Source: Spirochaetota bacterium | GTDB taxonomy: Bacteria; Spirochaetota; UBA4802; JAFGDQ01 | Reading direction: 5' to 3' | NCBI GenBank assembly: GCA_016932015.1 | Contig: JAFGDQ010000063.1 | Location: 2,658 to 66,657, forward strand | DNA length: 64,000 bases | Shown: positions 43,178-54,817 of the stretch, piece after piece | How positions within the stretch are numbered: the first letter of the stretch is position 1 | Layout of the letters: every line of letters begins with the position of its first letter | The notes under the pieces: model-generated | Seen by the model: only the letters and a program-made list of their open reading frames with translations | Database searches by the model: none | What the model was told of the DNA's origin: nothing | Translations under genes and position numbers: made by a program

Positions 43178-44179
43178 TCAGTCAACAAAATATTGAAATT
43201 TACCTGCGAAATGGCAGGACACCTGATGCGTATTGTTATCTGCATCTGTGTATGAATTCAGTAAAGGTGTTTCATTTTTACAGATCTCCTCTGCATACGG
43301 ACACCTTGTATGAAAAGAACAGCCGGAAGGCGGATTGACAGGGGAGGGGACATCACCTGTCAAAACGATTCTATTCTTCTTCTGCAGCGGATCGGGCCTT
43401 GGAATTGCCGAGATCAGAGCCTGTGTGTACGGATGCATGGGATTCTGATAAATTGAGTCCGCGTTCGTAAACTCAACTATTTTACCGAGATACATAACGG
43501 CAATTCTGTCCGATATATGTTTCACTACTGTCAGGTCATGTGATATGAAGATATAAGTAAGATCCATTTCCTGCTGCAGCTCAATAAGCAGATTCAGAAC
43601 CTGCGACTGTATTGACACATCAAGAGCTGAAACAGGTTCGTCGCAGATTATCAGTTTGGGGTTTAAGGCTATTGCGCGTGCAATTCCGATTCTCTGCCTC
43701 TGCCCGCCTGAAAATTCATGAGGATACCTGTTAAGGGCGTTTTCCGTGAGCCCGACTCTGTCAAGCAGGCGGATGACTTCTTTTTTTCTCTCATCCGGAG
43801 TGCCTATTTTATGAATGATGAAAGGCTCTTCAATAATGGCGCCTACCGTGTGCCTGGAGTTCAGCGACTCAAACGGGTCCTGGAATATTATCTGCATATC
43901 GCGCCTTGTTCCTCTTAGTTCTGCTTTATGCATTTCGGATATATTTCTGTTGTTAAAGTAAACTTCACCGTGCGACGGCTTGTATAGCTGAAGTACGGCT
44001 CTGCCGACCGTGGTTTTGCCGCAGCCTGATTCGCCCACAAGGCCCAGTGTCTCCGCGCGGTTTACATCGAATGAAACTCCGTCCACAGCTTTTACGGTAT
44101 TGATCTGTTTATAAAAGACTCCGCCTTTTATCGGAAAATGCATTTTAAGATCTTTTACCTGAAGCAGTTTGCCGTCCAT
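43178..44179 (-). CDS. oppF: Oligopeptide ABC transporter ATP-binding subunit (OppF/DppF-type)
   Basis: [35 protein letters not shown]-terminal Cys motif. Confidence 0.92.
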
Positions 44180-44214
44180 TATTTCTCCGTTAATCTGAAA
44201 CAGCTGGCGTAATG
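44158..44214 (+). repeat. 57-bp direct repeat, copy A (supplies oppF RBS and start)
   Basis: CCTGAAGCAGTTTGCCGTCCATTATTTCTCCGTTAATCTGAAACAGCTGGCGTAATG; 56/57 identical to 45026-45082. Confidence 0.95.
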
Positions 44215-44244
44215 ATAATGGTCATCTGAAATACGTATTGTTTA

Positions 44245-44568
44245 TTATGCTGCTTCAACCTGTATTCCTTCTCTGTGCGCAATTTCAATAATGATACTGC
44301 TGTCATTTGCCATCCATTCTTTTTCACCGCAGGCAATTGGTTCAATTCTGCTGTCTATTCTTGCAGCGACTTTCCAGAGCATTCCGATATCTTTAAGATT
44401 TTTATTACTATCGAAGATTGGAGATACTATAACCAGGTCAATGTCACTATCCGAATTATTAGTCCCTTTTATATATGATCCGAAGATAATCCCGAATATT
44501 ACCGGAATTCCCTTGTCCTGTAAAGAGTTAAGGTATTTGCGAACTGTTATAATTGTTGAATTATCCAT
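44245..44568 (-). CDS. Minimal nucleotidyltransferase (MNT) antitoxin
   Basis: IFGSYIKG...DSDIDLVIVS. Confidence 0.9.
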   Translation of the reverse strand: MDNSTIITVRKYLNSLQDKGIPVIFGIIFGSYIKGTNNSDSDIDLVIVSPIFDSNKNLKDIGMLWKVAARIDSRIEPIACGEKEWMANDSSIIIEIAHREGIQVEAA

Positions 44569-44924
44569 AAACGTACCTCGTTTGCCCTGTCTGAATATGA
44601 CTTAGCAGTTTTATTATCAGGAGATAATATTTGTGAACCGGGATATCTTCCTTCGATATTAAAGGTATTCATTTCTGCAAGAATATCAAGCTGGTAATCA
44701 TCCGGATTTAATTGAGCTATTTCGCAAAGTCTTACTAAATTATGTATCCTTGGGGGGATATCATTTATTATCCTGCAAATACGTGCTTTCAGTATTTTTT
44801 CAAGAGATAAATGAACAAAAAATAAACCATGACGATTTTTTTTATTTGCAATTAAGTAAGATGCCACGTTCCAGTCTTCTTCGGAACTTTGACTCCAGTA
44901 TTTTATTTGTTTTTCAATGTCCAT
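44547..44924 (-). CDS. HEPN domain protein
   Basis: EKILKA, PPRIHNL, RYP; overlaps the MNT start. Confidence 0.9.
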   Translation of the reverse strand: MDIEKQIKYWSQSSEEDWNVASYLIANKKNRHGLFFVHLSLEKILKARICRIINDIPPRIHNLVRLCEIAQLNPDDYQLDILAEMNTFNIEGRYPGSQILSPDNKTAKSYSDRANEVRLWIIQQL

Positions 44925-45025
44925 TTAATAGATAAATATACAGCTTTTGATTTATATATATTTAAGAGAAAAATAATTTCTCAAATATTAAAAAAAAATT
45001 CAATAAAAATTTATTGGTTCAGATG

Positions 45026-45082
45026 CCTGAAGCAGTCTGCCGTCCATTATTTCTCCGTTAATCTGAAACAGCTGGCGTAATG
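45026..45082 (+). repeat. 57-bp direct repeat, copy B (contains oppD 3' end and stop)
   Basis: CCTGAAGCAGTCTGCCGTCCATTATTTCTCCGTTAATCTGAAACAGCTGGCGTAATG. Confidence 0.95.
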
Positions 45083-46039
45083 GCCTGCTGAAATAAGTAT
45101 TTCATGCGGTTCTTCTCTGCATTTTTCAAATACTTCCGGACATCTGTTCTGGAACCGGCATCCATCAGGATAATCGGCTATTGCGGGAACAATGCCTTTA
45201 ATAGTATCCAGCTTTGATTTTCTGACATTGTCAAGTTTTGGTATTGAAGATAACAGGCCTTTTGTGTAAGGATGCGAAGGAGCCTGAAAGAGCCCGGCTG
45301 CAGGCGCCCTTTCAACTACCTTGCCCGCGTACATTACGAGTATTTCATCACAGATCTGTGCTATTACTCCAAGGTCATGGGTTATGAAAATGAGAGACAT
45401 GCCTGTCTCTTTCTGCAGGTCCTTTATTAGCTCAAGTATCTGTGCCTGTATTGTTACGTCAAGAGCTGTTGTGGGCTCATCAGCGATCAGTATGCCCGGT
45501 TTGCAGCTTAATGCCATTGCAATCATGACTCTCTGCCGCATGCCGCCAGAGAGCTGATGCGGGTATGCGCAGATTTTCCGGTCCGGATCGGATATTCCGA
45601 CTTTTGTTAATATGGCAACACTCTCCTTAAGAATATCATCTTTGCTCATTTCAGGAAAATGCAGCTCGAATGTTTCCGCAAGCTGCCTGCCTATTGTCTG
45701 CACAGGATTAAGCGCTGTCATGGGCTCCTGGAATATCATTGATATGCTGTTTCCGCGTATTTCATGAAGTTCGTCAGGAGAAAGTTTCAGAATGTCTCTG
45801 TCTTTGTAAATAATCTCTCCATTCAGGTACTGTCCTGTAGGTTTGGGCAGCAGTCTCATAAGTGACAGCGCTGTAACAGTCTTGCCGCAGCCGGATTCCC
45901 CTACAATACCGAGAGTTGTGTTCTCTTTCAGATCAAAACTCACGCCGTCAACAGCACGCAGCAGGCCTGATTCAGTCTGAAATGCTGTGACCAGGTCTCT
46001 GACTTCAAGTATTGTTGAAGTGTCTGTTCCTGTGTTCAA
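45047..46039 (-). CDS. oppD: Oligopeptide ABC transporter ATP-binding subunit (OppD/DppD-type)
   Basis: [38 protein letters not shown]. Confidence 0.92.
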   Translation of the reverse strand: MNTGTDTSTILEVRDLVTAFQTESGLLRAVDGVSFDLKENTTLGIVGESGCGKTVTALSLMRLLPKPTGQYLNGEIIYKDRDILKLSPDELHEIRGNSISMIFQEPMTALNPVQTIGRQLAETFELHFPEMSKDDILKESVAILTKVGISDPDRKICAYPHQLSGGMRQRVMIAMALSCKPGILIADEPTTALDVTIQAQILELIKDLQKETGMSLIFITHDLGVIAQICDEILVMYAGKVVERAPAAGLFQAPSHPYTKGLLSSIPKLDNVRKSKLDTIKGIVPAIADYPDGCRFQNRCPEVFEKCREEPHEILISAGHYASCFRLTEK

Positions 46040-46084: not shown

Positions 46085-47947
46085 TTAATTTTTTGCTTTA
46101 TAAGTCTTATCAATAATTGTAACCGGCTCGAAAACTTTGCCTTCTTTCATTGCTTTCAGGGTTTCCTTCTTCTCATCCTCATCAATCCAGAATATGCTCA
46201 CTCCGCCCGGATCGCCAAACACTTCGGAGGAATTTTTTGTTCCTGGTATATTCGGAACTTTCATCCATTTCCAGTAAAAACTTCTCGTGTAAGGCATCTG
46301 GTATAACGGTACCCATGCGCAGATATCATGAATTCTTTGCTGGATTTTGTGACTTAATTTTATTCTCTCATTTGCGTTTACCGAATTATCATATGCTTCA
46401 ATAAGTTTGTCCATTTCCGCATCATCGGTATTTGTAGCGTTGTTTGTCTGCGGTTTATGAGCATTCGCAGAATGAAATGCCTGCCATGGAGAAGGTCTTA
46501 GTCCGCCTCCGCTCAATCCCATGAAGCTGATCATATGCTTGTTTTCAACAAGTTTTTTGTACCATGTGCTGGGATCCAGCAGATCGAGTTTATATTCAAT
46601 CCCTGCCTTTTTTGCTTCTTCTTTCAGAAACACCATTTTTGGATTATGGATGGGGCTTCCGTATGTGATTTCAACAGAATATCTCTGTCCGTTTTTCTCC
46701 CATATTCCATCTTTTCCGCGGTTCCATCCCGCTTTTTGCATGTATTTTTCGACTTTCTTAATGCTGTATTTACGCGCCTTTATTTTTCTATTAGTATATT
46801 TTCCGTATCCGGTGTCAAAAGTGTGCAACCTTTCATAATCATCCCGCAGTACATTTGAATTTAATTTTTCAAAATTAACCGCATGTGCAAACGCGTATCT
46901 GACATTTATGTCTTTAAATAATTCTCTGTCCATGTTAAGCCAGAAGCCGTAAGTAGGGCGTCTTGTATCATTATAAAACTGTATTTTACGAGCATATCCC
47001 TGATCAAATATTCCGCCGTTTCCTTTCTGATGCCATATTTCCGGTTGACTGGCAGGGAAACAATCGAGGTTTCCTTTTTTGAAATACTCAAATGCAACAT
47101 TGTCATCTCTAATGACAATAAGTTTGAATCTGTCCACATTGTAACGGTTTTCATAATATCTTAAATCTTTGGCCCACCAGTCCTTTTTTCTTTCAAAAAT
47201 AAGGTATTTGCCTTTGGAGTAATCTCTGAGAATATATGCTCCGGTATTCGGCTCAATTTTCCAGTTATATTTTTTTACGAAATCCTTATCGAGCCTGCCG
47301 TAAAAATGTTTAGGTATAGGTGATATCGGAAGCCTTAACCACAGATCAGGCACTTTTTTCGGTGCTGAAATTGAGATGGTGTAATCATCATATTTTATTA
47401 CTTTATCTATTTCCTTTGTGTAATAGTTATTATACCATGGAGCATTGATATGTTTTGAACGCATGAATTCCAGAGTGTAAATATAATCATCTGCAGTGAC
47501 CTGCTTCCCGTCTGACCATACGGCTTTTTTATTGAGTTTGAAATACATTGTTTTACCGTCTTTATCAAAAGCCCAGTGAGTCGCCAGTGCCGGAACAGGC
47601 TCTTCCGTGTTCGGATGTATATCTATCAGGCTCATATGGTTGTTAAGGAAATATGACCTTGTGGAAGTATTTGAATCAGGTCCTACTGTTCTGAAAGTTA
47701 GAGGAAAAGAGTTTATGTAATAATTAAACTGTCCGCCTTTTCTGGCTTCAGTAGATGCGAATGTTTTATAATTATTATTTGTAATCCAGTTAATGTCCTG
47801 GGGCAATTCATGAGTGCTGTAATCAAGAGCAAGCTCCTCTCCTGTATCTGTGTTTTCTTCGATTGCTTCGTTTTCTGATTTTGAGCAGAATAACAGAACA
47901 GATGAGAAAAATAATAGTATAAACAATAAATGGATTTTTACTTTCAT
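46085..47947 (-). CDS. Family 5 solute-binding lipoprotein (YejA-like)
   Basis: Lipobox-like LLF-C, ARKGG, WSDGKQVTADD, YNVDR, DINVRYA. Confidence 0.88.
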   Translation of the reverse strand: MKVKIHLLFILLFFSSVLLFCSKSENEAIEENTDTGEELALDYSTHELPQDINWITNNNYKTFASTEARKGGQFNYYINSFPLTFRTVGPDSNTSTRSYFLNNHMSLIDIHPNTEEPVPALATHWAFDKDGKTMYFKLNKKAVWSDGKQVTADDYIYTLEFMRSKHINAPWYNNYYTKEIDKVIKYDDYTISISAPKKVPDLWLRLPISPIPKHFYGRLDKDFVKKYNWKIEPNTGAYILRDYSKGKYLIFERKKDWWAKDLRYYENRYNVDRFKLIVIRDDNVAFEYFKKGNLDCFPASQPEIWHQKGNGGIFDQGYARKIQFYNDTRRPTYGFWLNMDRELFKDINVRYAFAHAVNFEKLNSNVLRDDYERLHTFDTGYGKYTNRKIKARKYSIKKVEKYMQKAGWNRGKDGIWEKNGQRYSVEITYGSPIHNPKMVFLKEEAKKAGIEYKLDLLDPSTWYKKLVENKHMISFMGLSGGGLRPSPWQAFHSANAHKPQTNNATNTDDAEMDKLIEAYDNSVNANERIKLSHKIQQRIHDICAWVPLYQMPYTRSFYWKWMKVPNIPGTKNSSEVFGDPGGVSIFWIDEDEKKETLKAMKEGKVFEPVTIIDKTYKAKN

Positions 47948-48048: not shown

Positions 48049-49098
48049 TTATTCATAAGTCGTGTGCATCTTCGGATCAAAAGCCTCTCTGATAGCTTCA
48101 CCGATAAACGTAACCATTGTCAGTACAATTACAAGTGCTGAAATGACTGATATGCCTATCCAGGAAGCGCTTGTTGTAAACTCCGAGGCTTCGCTTAAAA
48201 GCTGTCCCCAGCTCGGGGTAGGGGGCGGCATGCCGAAACCGAGATAGTCGAGAGCAGTAAGTGCTGTGATCCCGCTTGTAATTGAGAAAGGTATAAATGT
48301 TACGATTATTGAGATCGTATTCGGTATTATATGTTTGAAAATTATTCTGAAGTTCGAAGCGCCGAGTGCTTTTGCTGCAAGAACGTATTCTCTCTCTTTT
48401 TCTTTATAGGTTGCTGTACGCATGTACCATGTCATGCTTATCCATCCGAAAAATATCATGATCAGCAGCAGCGATGAAAAGCTTGGAATGATTATTGATG
48501 AAATGATTATTATTGCATACAGGTAGGGAACGTTGCTCCATATTTCGATTATGCGCTGGAAGAACAGATCGAATTTTCCGCCGATATAGCCCATGAGGCA
48601 TCCGATGGATATGCCTGTTATGTAGTTCGCAATCAGCAGTATAAGGGAAAAGAAAATTGCTATTCTGAATCCGTAAACAAGTCTTGCCGCAATGTCGCGC
48701 CCGGTTTTGTCTGTGCCGAAGTAGTGTTTTTCCTCAAAAGAAGGGGGAAAGGGCGGATAAGCATTATCTTTAAGGTCTGTTTCAAATGCGTTATACGGAA
48801 CCAGTGGAAGTATTACATAATTATCACTACCGGTGTTATGAAAAATTTTATCAAGCTCCCTGTAGTTTGTTTCATATTCATAGTCAAGGCCGAATACTTT
48901 GCCCGGAATTATATCGCCGTACGCGGGAAAATAAAATTCGCCGTTATATCTTACAAGCAGCGCGCGGTTGTTTACAAACAGTTCTGCGGACAATGAAAAT
49001 ATGATAAGAATAATGAATATTATCAGTGAGAAATACCCTCTCTTTATGGACCTGAATCTGTTAAACTGTTTAATTGTCAGCGGGTTGAAATTGAACAT
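48049..49098 (-). CDS. Peptide ABC permease (YejE/OppC-like)
   Basis: RFRSIKRGYFSL, FGTDKTGRD, EYVLAAKALG, LDYLGFG, GEAIREAFDP. Confidence 0.9.
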   Translation of the reverse strand: MFNFNPLTIKQFNRFRSIKRGYFSLIIFIILIIFSLSAELFVNNRALLVRYNGEFYFPAYGDIIPGKVFGLDYEYETNYRELDKIFHNTGSDNYVILPLVPYNAFETDLKDNAYPPFPPSFEEKHYFGTDKTGRDIAARLVYGFRIAIFFSLILLIANYITGISIGCLMGYIGGKFDLFFQRIIEIWSNVPYLYAIIIISSIIIPSFSSLLLIMIFFGWISMTWYMRTATYKEKEREYVLAAKALGASNFRIIFKHIIPNTISIIVTFIPFSITSGITALTALDYLGFGMPPPTPSWGQLLSEASEFTTSASWIGISVISALVIVLTMVTFIGEAIREAFDPKMHTTYE

Positions 49099-53006: not shown

Positions 53007-54023
53007 ATGAGTATAAGAAAAAAAAAGAAATGGGCGCTCCTGCTGGCAGGTATTGTACTGGCTTTATTCATAATATCTTTTCTGTCGCTGGTAATAGGAA
53101 CTAAGGATATTAAAATTACCGACGTCTTCTCAATTGCGCTTAACGGGAAAGGTACTACGGAATACAGCATACTGTTTGATATCCGTCTGCCGAGAATCCT
53201 GATGGGGTTCGCGATAGGCGGGGCGCTGAGTCTGGCCGGAGCAATACTGCAGGGTATTTTCCGCAATCCTCTTGTTGAACCGTATACTCTTGGTATTTCA
53301 GGAGGTGCCACTCTCGGAGTAAGCCTTAATCTTGTTTTCGGCATAAGCCGTTCTTTCGGAATCCTTTCAATGCCTCTGTTCGGATTTCTGGGGGCATTTT
53401 TCGTTATTCTTATATTATATTCTCTCAGCCTTAAAAAGGGTGTTATAAAGATGAACGGCCTGCTGCTGACAGGTGTTATGATAAGCTTTGTTTCATCAAG
53501 CCTGCTGATGCTGCTTCAGTCCATTACCACTGCAGAAGACCTTCAGGGCATTATATTCTGGATTATGGGCTCTCTTGATGAGTCAAACTGGCTTCTTATT
53601 AAAATGTGCCTGTGTGTTTCTATAGCGGGGCTTCTTCTATCATATATATTATGCCTTGACCTTAATGCTCTTGCTCTCGGAGAAGAGGAGGCGCTGCATC
53701 TCGGCATTTCAGTCGAAAGGTCCAAGCGTTTTTTCTTCATCATTGCCTCGGTTCTTACAGGACTAAGCGTATCGCTTGCCGGAGTAATTGCTTTTGTAGG
53801 CCTTATTGTACCGCATTTTCTTCGCATGTTTATTGGCGGTGATCACAGGATACTGCTGGTTTCCTCCTATCTCGCGGGAGCAGGGTTTCTGATTTTCTGC
53901 GATACTCTTTCAAGAACAATAGCTGCCCCTCTGGAACTGCCGGTGGGAGTTGTTACAGGGATTATTGGCGGCAGCTTTTTTGTTTATGCTATAAGCAGAA
54001 GGGGGCTCCTGTGGGAGAACTGA
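53007..54023 (+). CDS. FecCD/BtuC-family ABC permease
   Basis: IRLPR, RNPLVEPYTLGISGGA, GEEEALHLG, FVGLIVPH, ELPVG. Confidence 0.92.
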   Translation: MSIRKKKKWALLLAGIVLALFIISFLSLVIGTKDIKITDVFSIALNGKGTTEYSILFDIRLPRILMGFAIGGALSLAGAILQGIFRNPLVEPYTLGISGGATLGVSLNLVFGISRSFGILSMPLFGFLGAFFVILILYSLSLKKGVIKMNGLLLTGVMISFVSSSLLMLLQSITTAEDLQGIIFWIMGSLDESNWLLIKMCLCVSIAGLLLSYILCLDLNALALGEEEALHLGISVERSKRFFFIIASVLTGLSVSLAGVIAFVGLIVPHFLRMFIGGDHRILLVSSYLAGAGFLIFCDTLSRTIAAPLELPVGVVTGIIGGSFFVYAISRRGLLWEN

Positions 54024-54817
54024 TTCTTGAAATAAATGGCCTGTCCTGCGGTTACGGTACTGAAGATATTCTGCATGATATAAATTTTACCGTGAGTAAA
54101 GGCGATATTGTCAGCATAATCGGCCCCAACGGTTCCGGAAAAACCACTCTATTCAGGGCCCTGACCAGAATTCTAAAGCCTTCAGCCGGGAAGATTTTTT
54201 TTCAGGGAAAGGATCTAGGTCATATGACTTACAGGGAGATGGCAAAAAAGATTGCGGTCGTTTCCCAGGAGATTGAATCCGCATGGCTGACTGTTGAGGA
54301 ATATATTATGATGGGAAGGATTCCGTATTTTGAGAGGTATCAGTTCTTTGAAACAAGCGATGATATTTCCATAACGGAAAGATACATGAAAATGACAGGA
54401 GTCGATCATCTTCGGAAGAAGTCTATGAGTGAAATCAGCGGCGGGGAACGGCAGCTGGTGGCTATAACAAAAGCTCTTACTCAGGAACCGGAATTGCTCC
54501 TTCTGGATGAACCTACTTCACATCTTGACATTACACATCAGGTGGGAATACTTGATCTTGTAAAAAAGCTTAATTCGGAATACGGCATTACTGTTATTAT
54601 GATTGTGCATGACCTTAATCTTGCGAGTGAATACTGCAATAAACTGATAATGATCAGCAGCGGATCCGTATATAATCAGGGAACTCCGCAGGATGTCATT
54701 ACATATGAGGCACTTGAGGAAGTTTATAACACGGTGGTTATTGTTGAAAAAAATCCTCTCTCAGACAAGCCTTATGTACTGCTTGTATCTGAAGAGGACA
54801 GAAAAAGATTTTTGTAA
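54011..54817 (+). CDS. BtuD/FepC-family ABC ATPase
   Basis: GPNGSGKT, ISGGERQ, LDEPTSHLD, HDLNLA. Confidence 0.92.
   Translation: MGELILEINGLSCGYGTEDILHDINFTVSKGDIVSIIGPNGSGKTTLFRALTRILKPSAGKIFFQGKDLGHMTYREMAKKIAVVSQEIESAWLTVEEYIMMGRIPYFERYQFFETSDDISITERYMKMTGVDHLRKKSMSEISGGERQLVAITKALTQEPELLLLDEPTSHLDITHQVGILDLVKKLNSEYGITVIMIVHDLNLASEYCNKLIMISSGSVYNQGTPQDVITYEALEEVYNTVVIVEKNPLSDKPYVLLVSEEDRKRFL

Follow-up and report, generated by a model that had tools for sequence, protein, structure and literature searches.

A two-gene module between oppD and oppF

The present study concerns a HEPN-MNT pair (MNT, minimal nucleotidyltransferase) that sits between the ABC ATPase genes oppD and oppF of a transporter operon in a Spirochaetota bacterium (assembly GCA_016932015.1). 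The window, a stretch of 64,000 nucleotides (nt), lies on contig C93 of a metagenome-assembled genome, termed G000, which comprises 116 contigs with a total of 4.42 Mb at 91% completeness. Every gene of the region is carried by the minus strand, in the order permease, solute-binding protein, oppD, HEPN, MNT and oppF, and the following features were assigned (aa, amino acids; ORF, open reading frame).

45047-46039, minus strand: oppD-type ABC ATPase, 330 aa, intact (PF00005 and PF08352)
45026-45101: repeat copy adjoining oppD, consisting of the near-identical 57-nt block 45026-45082 and the oppD coding part 45083-45101, the duplicate of which has decayed
45000-45047, minus strand: 15-codon stub ORF (MDGRLLQASEPINFY and stop), the displaced oppF start; its ATG overlaps the oppD stop
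44925-45025, minus strand: leader of 101 nt between the repeat and the HEPN ATG, 15% G+C
44547-44924, minus strand: HEPN-domain gene, 125 aa, first of the pair (Pfam PF05168, E=4e-12)
44245-44568, minus strand: MNT gene, 107 aa (PF01909, NTP_transf_2, E=2e-9; PF18765, Polbeta)
44158-44239: repeat copy adjoining oppF, 82 nt, consisting of the near-identical block 44158-44214 and a decayed oppD 3' end, 44215-44239
44190-44225, minus strand: 11-codon mini-ORF, whose ATG was produced by substitutions in the decayed part of the repeat
43178-44179, minus strand: oppF-type ABC ATPase, 333 aa, intact (PF00005 and PF08352)
46085-47947, minus strand: solute-binding protein, upstream in the operon (Pfam PF00496)
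48049-49098, minus strand: permease, upstream in the operon (Pfam PF00528)

The HEPN and MNT genes overlap by 22 nt, and the insert of 811 nt encodes these two proteins only, with no integrase, transposase or recombinase. The G+C content of the cassette is 32% and that of its leader 15%, compared to 45-46% for oppD/oppF and 37.6% for the genome. Inspection of the leader by eye revealed hexamers resembling those of a promoter and, ahead of a T-run, a hairpin made of A+T only, whereas a promoter and terminator scan of 44925-45025 called neither.

A duplicated stop/start junction flanks the pair

A sequence-only reading of this DNA had described the pair as flanked by a direct repeat of the oppD/oppF overlap, which our repeat search confirmed. 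The segments 44158-44214 and 45026-45082 are identical at 56 of 57 positions, with a spacing of 868 nt and 811 nt between the copies, and both contain GGAGAAATAATGG, in which the oppD stop overlaps an ATG. The copy at 45026-45082 completes oppD and opens the 15-codon stub; together with its extension, the oppD-side copy corresponds to the last ~55 nt of oppD, the oppD stop and the first 22 nt of an oppF-like start. The copy at 44158-44214 supplies the ribosome-binding site and ATG of oppF. As had been stated, both genes are intact thanks to the duplication, with ORFs of 330 and 333 aa. Throughout the 4.42-Mb assembly, the repeat occurs at these two sites only and the cassette is present in a single copy. 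Local alignment of one flank against the other gave a score of 111, compared to a mean of 20.1 (standard deviation 2.1) for shuffles.

The 57-nt block reported earlier stands, but not as the limit of the duplication. Beyond a 6-nt indel (CATTAT), the homology continues between 44216-44239 and 45078-45101, with 20 of 24 positions identical, so that the full duplicated block amounts to about 76/82 nt, with a decayed distal part. The MNT stop codon nearly abuts this decayed 3' fragment of oppD. The same reading had taken CATCTGAA/TTCAGATG as the inverted termini of the element; we dismiss them, because the CATCTGAA arm (44223-44230) sits inside the decayed copy of the oppD end. At the true borders, compared over 40 nt at either end of the insert, the longest inverted match is 6 nt (shuffle p=0.48). 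DNA folds of both repeat copies on both strands revealed no hairpin potential (z 0.17 to -1.32).

One public run contains the stretch and is possibly its source sample. Its Logan contigs (k=31) stop at the exact-repeat border (44199), and a separate 45-nt repeat unitig (45038-45082) has a depth of 38.4, compared to 20.6 for the flank among the k=31 contigs of the same sample; this depth fits two repeat copies. Among the contigs read, none covers the cassette and no 868-nt joint is listed; these data are uninformative on empty alleles or circles. We weighed an assembly artefact, in which assembly across a shared repeat placed a cassette of other origin here. It gains some ground from the metagenomic origin of the assembly, where a k=31 graph would be blind across the 46-nt exact repeat and would not tell a filled allele from an empty allele plus a circle. 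However, on the MNT side the repeat runs on into a separate, diverged stretch of the oppD end that could not arise from a mis-join, and the sister cases described below show the same architecture in independent assemblies. We thus regard an artefact as very improbable.

As the oppD stop now overlaps only the 15-codon stub, direct translational coupling of oppD and oppF is lost, an outcome that had been foreseen and is read here from the sequence. The oppF gene lies 65 nt past the MNT stop and has its native Shine-Dalgarno. The stop of the mini-ORF 44190-44225 is placed 10 nt ahead of the oppF ATG, on the GGAG that forms the oppF Shine-Dalgarno; judged from this position, the mini-ORF may or may not restore some coupling to oppF.

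The pair belongs to the HEPN-T type

Residue conservation was derived from alignments of 39 HEPN and 30 MNT sequences of the loci gathered here. In HEPN, the residues W10, D17, F35, E42, K43, K46, P58, H61, L63 and R93 are invariant (39/39 each), and H38 is near-invariant (38/39); all of them are present in G000. In MNT, the family-invariant residues G30, S31, S41, D42 and D44 (G30, S31 and D42-x-D44 in 30/30) are likewise all found in G000. They include the GSx10DxD motif (G30, S31, D42 and D44). The canonical Rx4-6H RNase motif is absent, as none of the positions 5-7 residues past R93 holds a conserved H or D among the 39 HEPN sequences; the conserved histidines H61 and H38 lie upstream of R93 instead. 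An invariant R together with upstream histidines is given for the HEPN-T family in Table 1 of Anantharaman et al. (PMC3710099), a paper that also places MNT almost always 5' of HEPN. Here the order is HEPN then MNT, in G000 and in all 42 other loci that have both genes.

Comparison with curated models gave a score of 29.5 bits for MNT against the MntA model NF047752, below its cut-off of 60. The HEPN protein has no match among the NCBIfam and PADLOC models, and the only PADLOC matches of MNT are the candidate systems PDC-S09 and PDC-M05A. Solved structures, compared by sequence, gave no match below E=0.49.

HepT-MntA systems (type VII) combine a HEPN protein with a minimal nucleotidyltransferase carrying GS...DxD in one overlapping operon. 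The present pair is similar in that a HEPN protein is coupled to a GS...DxD MNT by overlapping genes. It differs in having a HEPN-T/PF05168 protein without Rx4-6H, in the order HEPN first, and in the MNT score of 29.5 against a cut-off of 60 bits. By its sequence signature, the pair is of the HEPN-T/PF05168 type, and neither of the characterised HepT-MntA type nor of DUF86. Because Rx4-6H is absent, the curated models failed and the gene order is reversed, we use the label toxin-antitoxin for this putative system at the family level only.

In a few loci the HEPN gene is interrupted with MNT open, namely L049 (HEPN region 1498-1875, cassette orientation) and L020/L029, the breaks being an in-frame TAG in genome G377 and a frameshift in an Anaerolineae metagenome-assembled genome (MAG). 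In genome G405 (L067), the conserved leader is no longer followed by HEPN, which has been replaced or deleted, and the start of MNT is retained. Interrupted HEPN genes next to an open MNT look like loss of the toxin before the antitoxin.

The junction and the pair in relatives

The orthologous operon was taken from four genomes of the same family (G001, G002, G005 and G006) and one of the same order (G036). A HEPN- or MNT-like gene is found between oppD and oppF in none of the five, in agreement with the earlier claim that a recombinase-less pair was inserted there. G001 keeps a stop/start overlap of 4 nt (GGAGGAATAATG; GGAGGAATAATGAC).

Separately, the oppD-oppF spacer of ~145 nt in G002 (L016:4329-4475) contains a G-rich palindromic element (GGGAGAGGGG...CCCCTCTCCC), which makes the junction a recurrent site of small insertions.

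The closest homologues of both proteins are in G005, a Spirochaetota MAG, with amino-acid identities of 78% and 72%, about equal to the 77-78% between oppD/oppF of the two genomes. This sister pair lies in the same operon, between the solute-binding-protein gene (oppA) and oppD, behind a GNAT acetyltransferase gene, and no flanking repeat was found at the insert. The next-best homologues are 54-63% identical. Scans with the HEPN alignment gave seven loci in the genome collection and eight in metagenomes, with a best match of 59-63% identity besides G005.

The G005 pair bears on the main rival explanation, a rearrangement within the operon and without any mobile step, starting from a G005-like ancestor with the pair upstream of oppD. 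A tandem duplication of HEPN-MNT-oppD plus the oppF start, followed by deletions, would leave oppD, the stub, HEPN-MNT, an 82-nt oppD remnant and oppF. Consistent with such a course, the sister pair is in the same operon and has diverged as much as the host genes, the oppF-side copy is literally a decayed 3' fragment of oppD, and tandem duplication with recombination is discussed in PMC3457768 as an alternative to insertion with long target duplication. Yet at least three events with well-placed end points are required, and the pair is missing from the operon in three members of the same family, G001, G002 and G006. Moreover, the pair of G005 is preceded by a GNAT gene, has no non-coding sequence in common with that of G000 and lacks a flanking repeat. 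On balance, we consider the rearrangement unlikely.

Long flanking repeats recur around HEPN-MNT pairs

For each locus, 500-600 nt upstream of HEPN were aligned with 600-700 nt downstream of MNT, and the score was compared to shuffles. In the genome and metagenome collections together with G000, four of 16 loci stand out (G000, L024, L032 and L033; z 29 to 70), the remaining 12 having z values of at most 3.4. The 400 Spirochaetota genomes yielded 28 loci, 27 of them scored, and eight stand out with z 15 to 83 (L037, L038, L041, L042, L044, L049, L050 and L053). Altogether 12 of 43 HEPN-MNT loci, at 10 independent sites, are repeat-flanked, so that a search for further pairs with long flanking duplications, as had been proposed, proved positive. 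In windows of the same geometry across G000, the lowest positive score is reached by 22 of 8438 (0.26%), several of which are tandem paralogues.

The repeats, ranging from 36 to 174 nt among the repeat-flanked loci, are of two kinds, namely unique host sequence, usually a gene end, and multi-copy or array sequence. In addition to G000, which is of the unique kind, they are distributed as follows.

L042/L044, unique: terminal ~59 nt of a convergently oriented gene of 131 aa, with exactly two copies in each genome
L049/L050, unique: terminal 60-76 nt of a gene with a metallo-beta-lactamase fold, with two copies in each genome
L032, presumably unique: terminal ~134 nt of panB, the copies being strongly diverged; the HEPN ATG lies 2 nt past the panB stop
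L033, presumably unique: last 88 nt of an ABC ATPase gene
L037, multi-copy: at least three full copies in its genome
L041, multi-copy: three in a row, as repeat, HEPN-MNT, repeat, Fic gene, repeat
L024, multi-copy: three copies on the contig and a fourth elsewhere
L038 and L053: repeats short and hairpin-like

At four of the five unique-target sites, one repeat border lies within ~3 nt of a stop codon, the exception being G000, where the border is 21 nt past the oppD stop, inside oppF. Neither ARAGORN nor Rfam recognized a tRNA or tmRNA in the T-arm-like sequence of the L024 repeat.

Insert-to-insert DNA homology spans the region from the HEPN ATG to inside the MNT gene only. None of the 11 repeat-flanked inserts has terminal inverted repeats. 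The conserved cassette ends that had been expected elsewhere were not found among the nine inserts compared, although at 68% identity short end motifs could escape.

A gene family whose products start with MA(T/D/E)xKLNP... is multi-copy and adjoins several of the repeat-flanked cassettes in different genomes (L041:775-1113, minus strand; L053:128-751, minus strand; G000 contigs C20 69097-69525, C24 16820-17248 and C70 27693-27929); it has no Pfam match. Small modules seem to cluster at the spots of repeat-flanked cassettes. L101:3977-5622 and L102:8843-9717 hold, by eye, a HicA/HicB-like pair and a second MNT/HEPN pair with an RNxxAH-type motif. Contig C1 of G000 carries at 53162-54139 a MazE-like/PIN-like pair, recognized by eye, between two perfect 59-nt direct repeats, each of which forms two hairpins. 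The 32-35-nt repeats, ~66 nt apart, at 53150-54050 of contig C51 are presumably a CRISPR array.

Structured repeat arrays differ from the G000 repeat

Among PIN/VapBC loci of the same phylum, eight of 26 scored loci reach a score of at least 48, six of them being one cassette type. This VapB/PIN cassette occurs in six genomes of one genus (L072, L073, L074, L081, L088 and L093, about 1000-2075 in each), with repeats of ~170 nt that have inverted ends, start with CGTATAAC and end with GTTATACG, and with different neighbours each time. Its architecture appears attC-like in sequence. At L104:7900-9900 (G337:C10:183900-185900; also L041), three direct repeats of ~110 nt, with identities of 100%, 95% and 76%, separate a HEPN-MNT pair from a Fic/DOC gene. 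It resembles a cassette array of the integron type or one without an integrase; inspection by eye of 16 kb around it, the ORFs of which were not scanned against a family library, showed no integrase.

These loci raise the idea that the G000 module is an integron-type gene cassette with its repeats as attC sites. HEPN-MNT and VapBC pairs of the same phylum do occur in repeat-cassette-repeat arrays with structured repeats of 110-170 nt, and toxin-antitoxin operons are described as cassettes of chromosomal integrons in PMC2654758. The latter are similar to the present module in being promoter-bearing two-gene units of ~0.8-1 kb between direct repeats of 50-170 nt. In contrast, the G000 repeat is host coding sequence from the oppD/oppF junction, unstructured and present in two copies, with no array at the locus and no candidate integron integrase nearby. 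Lacking hairpin potential, dispersal and an array, it is not an attC site; the two-copy count and the folds contradict that identity, and we find the integron explanation scarcely credible.

No vehicle or nearby recombinase was found

The recombinase matches of G000 are two for PF00589 (tyrosine), on contigs C12 and C75, and this 91%-complete genome has no PF00239 (serine recombinase) match. A tblastn search with the HEPN protein gave no match in 72,556 plasmids (E<=1e-8), none in 50,697 phage records (E<=1e-6) and none in viral contigs.

These results bear on a site-specific route, which the sequence-only reading had offered in calling the repeat att-like. The repeats would then be attL and attR of a decayed island or a cis-mobilisable cassette, with the integrase acting in trans, and an element-borne copy of the gene end would repair the target. 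From other systems, integrase-less elements and cis-mobilisable ones are known that occupy gene 3' ends, and some prophages supply a replacement for the 3' end of the gene they target. The present cases share with them a direct repeat built of the target gene end and a gene that stays functional. They differ in the lack of a recombinase, of a conserved core and of arms, and in having the same minimal content at ten independent sites. The borders within ~3 nt of a stop at four of five unique-target sites resemble such elements, the two strongly diverged panB ends at L032 look as though one arrived with the element, and repeat-cassette-repeat arrays exist in G337 and the L024 genome. On the other side, no integrase lies in or near the cassette, the tyrosine matches of G000 being on other contigs; conserved cassette ends and terminal inverted repeats are missing, the repeat length is variable, and the G000 border lies inside oppF rather than at a gene end. 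The att-type route, including repair of the target by an imported gene end, therefore appears quite unlikely.

A filled/empty pair and repeats that evolve in concert

Two genomes of the genus g28 provide an exact comparison. G213 has the end of an ATPase gene, a repeat, HEPN-MNT and a second repeat that runs on into the gene, whereas G262, which has no HEPN match, shows the same ATPase gene end, a single repeat copy and then the gene. The G262 ATPase gene end matches at 18 of 20 positions over the 20 nt before the contig end. As the two genomes differ by exactly the insert plus one repeat, they display the signature of target duplication or of its precise reversal.

The ATPase gene, of the AAA_14/DUF4143 type (G213 L100:4254-5576), ends 4 nt from the repeat border in both G213 and G262 (L066) and is absent in G312 (L044); beside the G213 cassette it has no flanking repeat of its own. 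From the distribution of this gene and of HEPN-MNT, the stop of one and the same 131-aa gene is a site where two cassettes are gained and lost independently of each other.

In the genus g18 (L049/L050, two species), the cassettes are 85% identical and the host flanks 79%, indicating that the insertion predates the species split. The repeats agree at 58 of 60 and 57 of 63 positions within each genome, compared to 49-51 of 60 between genomes, which means that they evolve in concert. For this reason, the 56/57 identity in G000 is no sign of a recent event. In G000, age may be better read from the decayed 24 nt, and conversion and/or constraint may account for the 57-nt block.

A model for insertion and retention

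Taken as a whole, we consider it probable that a non-autonomous HEPN-MNT module was inserted at the oppD/oppF overlap by insertion with long target duplication. We propose that a promoter-bearing two-gene unit with its own A+T-rich leader was joined into the stop/start overlap, with ~80 nt of the target being duplicated. One repeat copy would finish oppD and the other would return a ribosome-binding site and start to oppF, so that the transporter survives; the event was probably retained since each transporter gene kept a complete end. Because the cassette has neither a mobility gene nor specific ends, host recombination or repair is the most likely inserter. The join might have occurred by template switch, by unequal or one-sided illegitimate exchange, or by a single crossover with a circle that included part of the junction sequence. 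Afterwards, to judge from the sister case, the 57-nt block would have been kept alike by gene conversion and/or constraint and the rest have decayed. RecA-type recombination between the repeats could excise an 868-bp circle precisely, leaving the TAATG junction as it was before; provided that the pair does function as a toxin-antitoxin, selection would act against its loss in this way.

Several observations weigh against this reading. The mismatches cluster in the distal part of the duplicated block (4/24, compared to 1/57 in the proximal part; Fisher p=0.025), a pattern not predicted by a simple one-step duplication. The substitution cluster and the small tandem indel at one border could be junction-proximal damage or, equally, decay outside a conversion tract. 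The five empty relatives are all of other genera and have diverged junctions, the length of which ranges from the 4-nt overlap of G001 through ~20 nt to spacers of ~145 nt. The G005 pair fits an old resident rearranged in the operon as well as a fresh insertion. Finally, the repeats are multi-copy or arrayed at four or five of the 12 repeat-flanked loci, so not every flanking repeat in the family is a target duplication.

Comparison with known insertions

A similar footprint has been described for restriction-modification genes. Furuta, Abe and Kobayashi (2010, PMC2853133) report complexes inserted with long target duplications of variable length, >30 bp, and without another mobile element, citing Nobusato et al. 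(2000) for the original report. The repeats are described there as often unique and often spanning a start or stop codon, with the target gene intact; the authors suggest a common restriction property, such as double-strand breakage, as the cause, and propose a life cycle that uses the repeats. The present insertions are similar in being small selfish units without a mobility gene, with unique repeats of >30 bp whose length varies by case, which span a stop/start with the target intact and, in the G213/G262 case, are single at the empty site, and in an insert G+C below that of the genome. They differ in their cargo, since HEPN-MNT is not expected to break DNA, and in their target, which here is an overlapping stop/start junction inside an operon. 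Compared to the definition of Furuta et al. (2010), G000 has repeats of >30 bp, an insert of <20 kb without a mobile element and a unique repeat, but not the restriction-modification cargo, and an exact empty site is seen only in G262 versus G213.

According to Makarova et al. (2009, PMC2701414), no mobile two-gene module is more widespread than HEPN-MNT; they report recent insertions, among them one in the Thermus lysine operon of one strain and not another, and pairs beside GNAT genes in Deinococcus. As in those cases, the pairs here lie inside an operon or beside a GNAT gene (compare G005). Section 20 of that paper names no vehicle and is silent on flanking repeats or movement. Our literature search, which did not cover supplementary files, found no paper that applies long-target-duplication insertion to toxin-antitoxin modules. 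The footprint, known for restriction-modification genes, recurs here around HEPN-MNT modules.

The vehicle of chromosomal toxin-antitoxin pairs has been unclear so far. The present locus and its relatives show a recurring recombinase-less footprint in which a long piece of unique target sequence, frequently the end of a gene, is duplicated; one exact filled/empty pair and signs of recombination between the repeats were found as well. Annotators of genomes should be prepared to meet stub ORFs, as well as short duplicates of gene ends, next to cassettes of this type. The HEPN-MNT cargo argues for a host-driven mechanism rather than DNA breakage by the cargo, and suggests that addiction, not nuclease activity, preserves these otherwise unstable structures.

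More tentatively, and with considerable doubt, we put forward insertion with long target duplication as a general, enzyme-free route of entry and exit for small addictive two-gene modules such as HEPN-MNT and VapBC. Gene conversion would keep the flanking target copies alike, the module could leave without a scar as a circle and re-enter a naive junction by a single crossover, and the arrangement would persist as cells that delete a working module die. If this were true, the duplication would need no DNA-cutting cargo, contrary to the explanation given for restriction-modification genes, and toxin-antitoxin modules would have a life cycle of their own.

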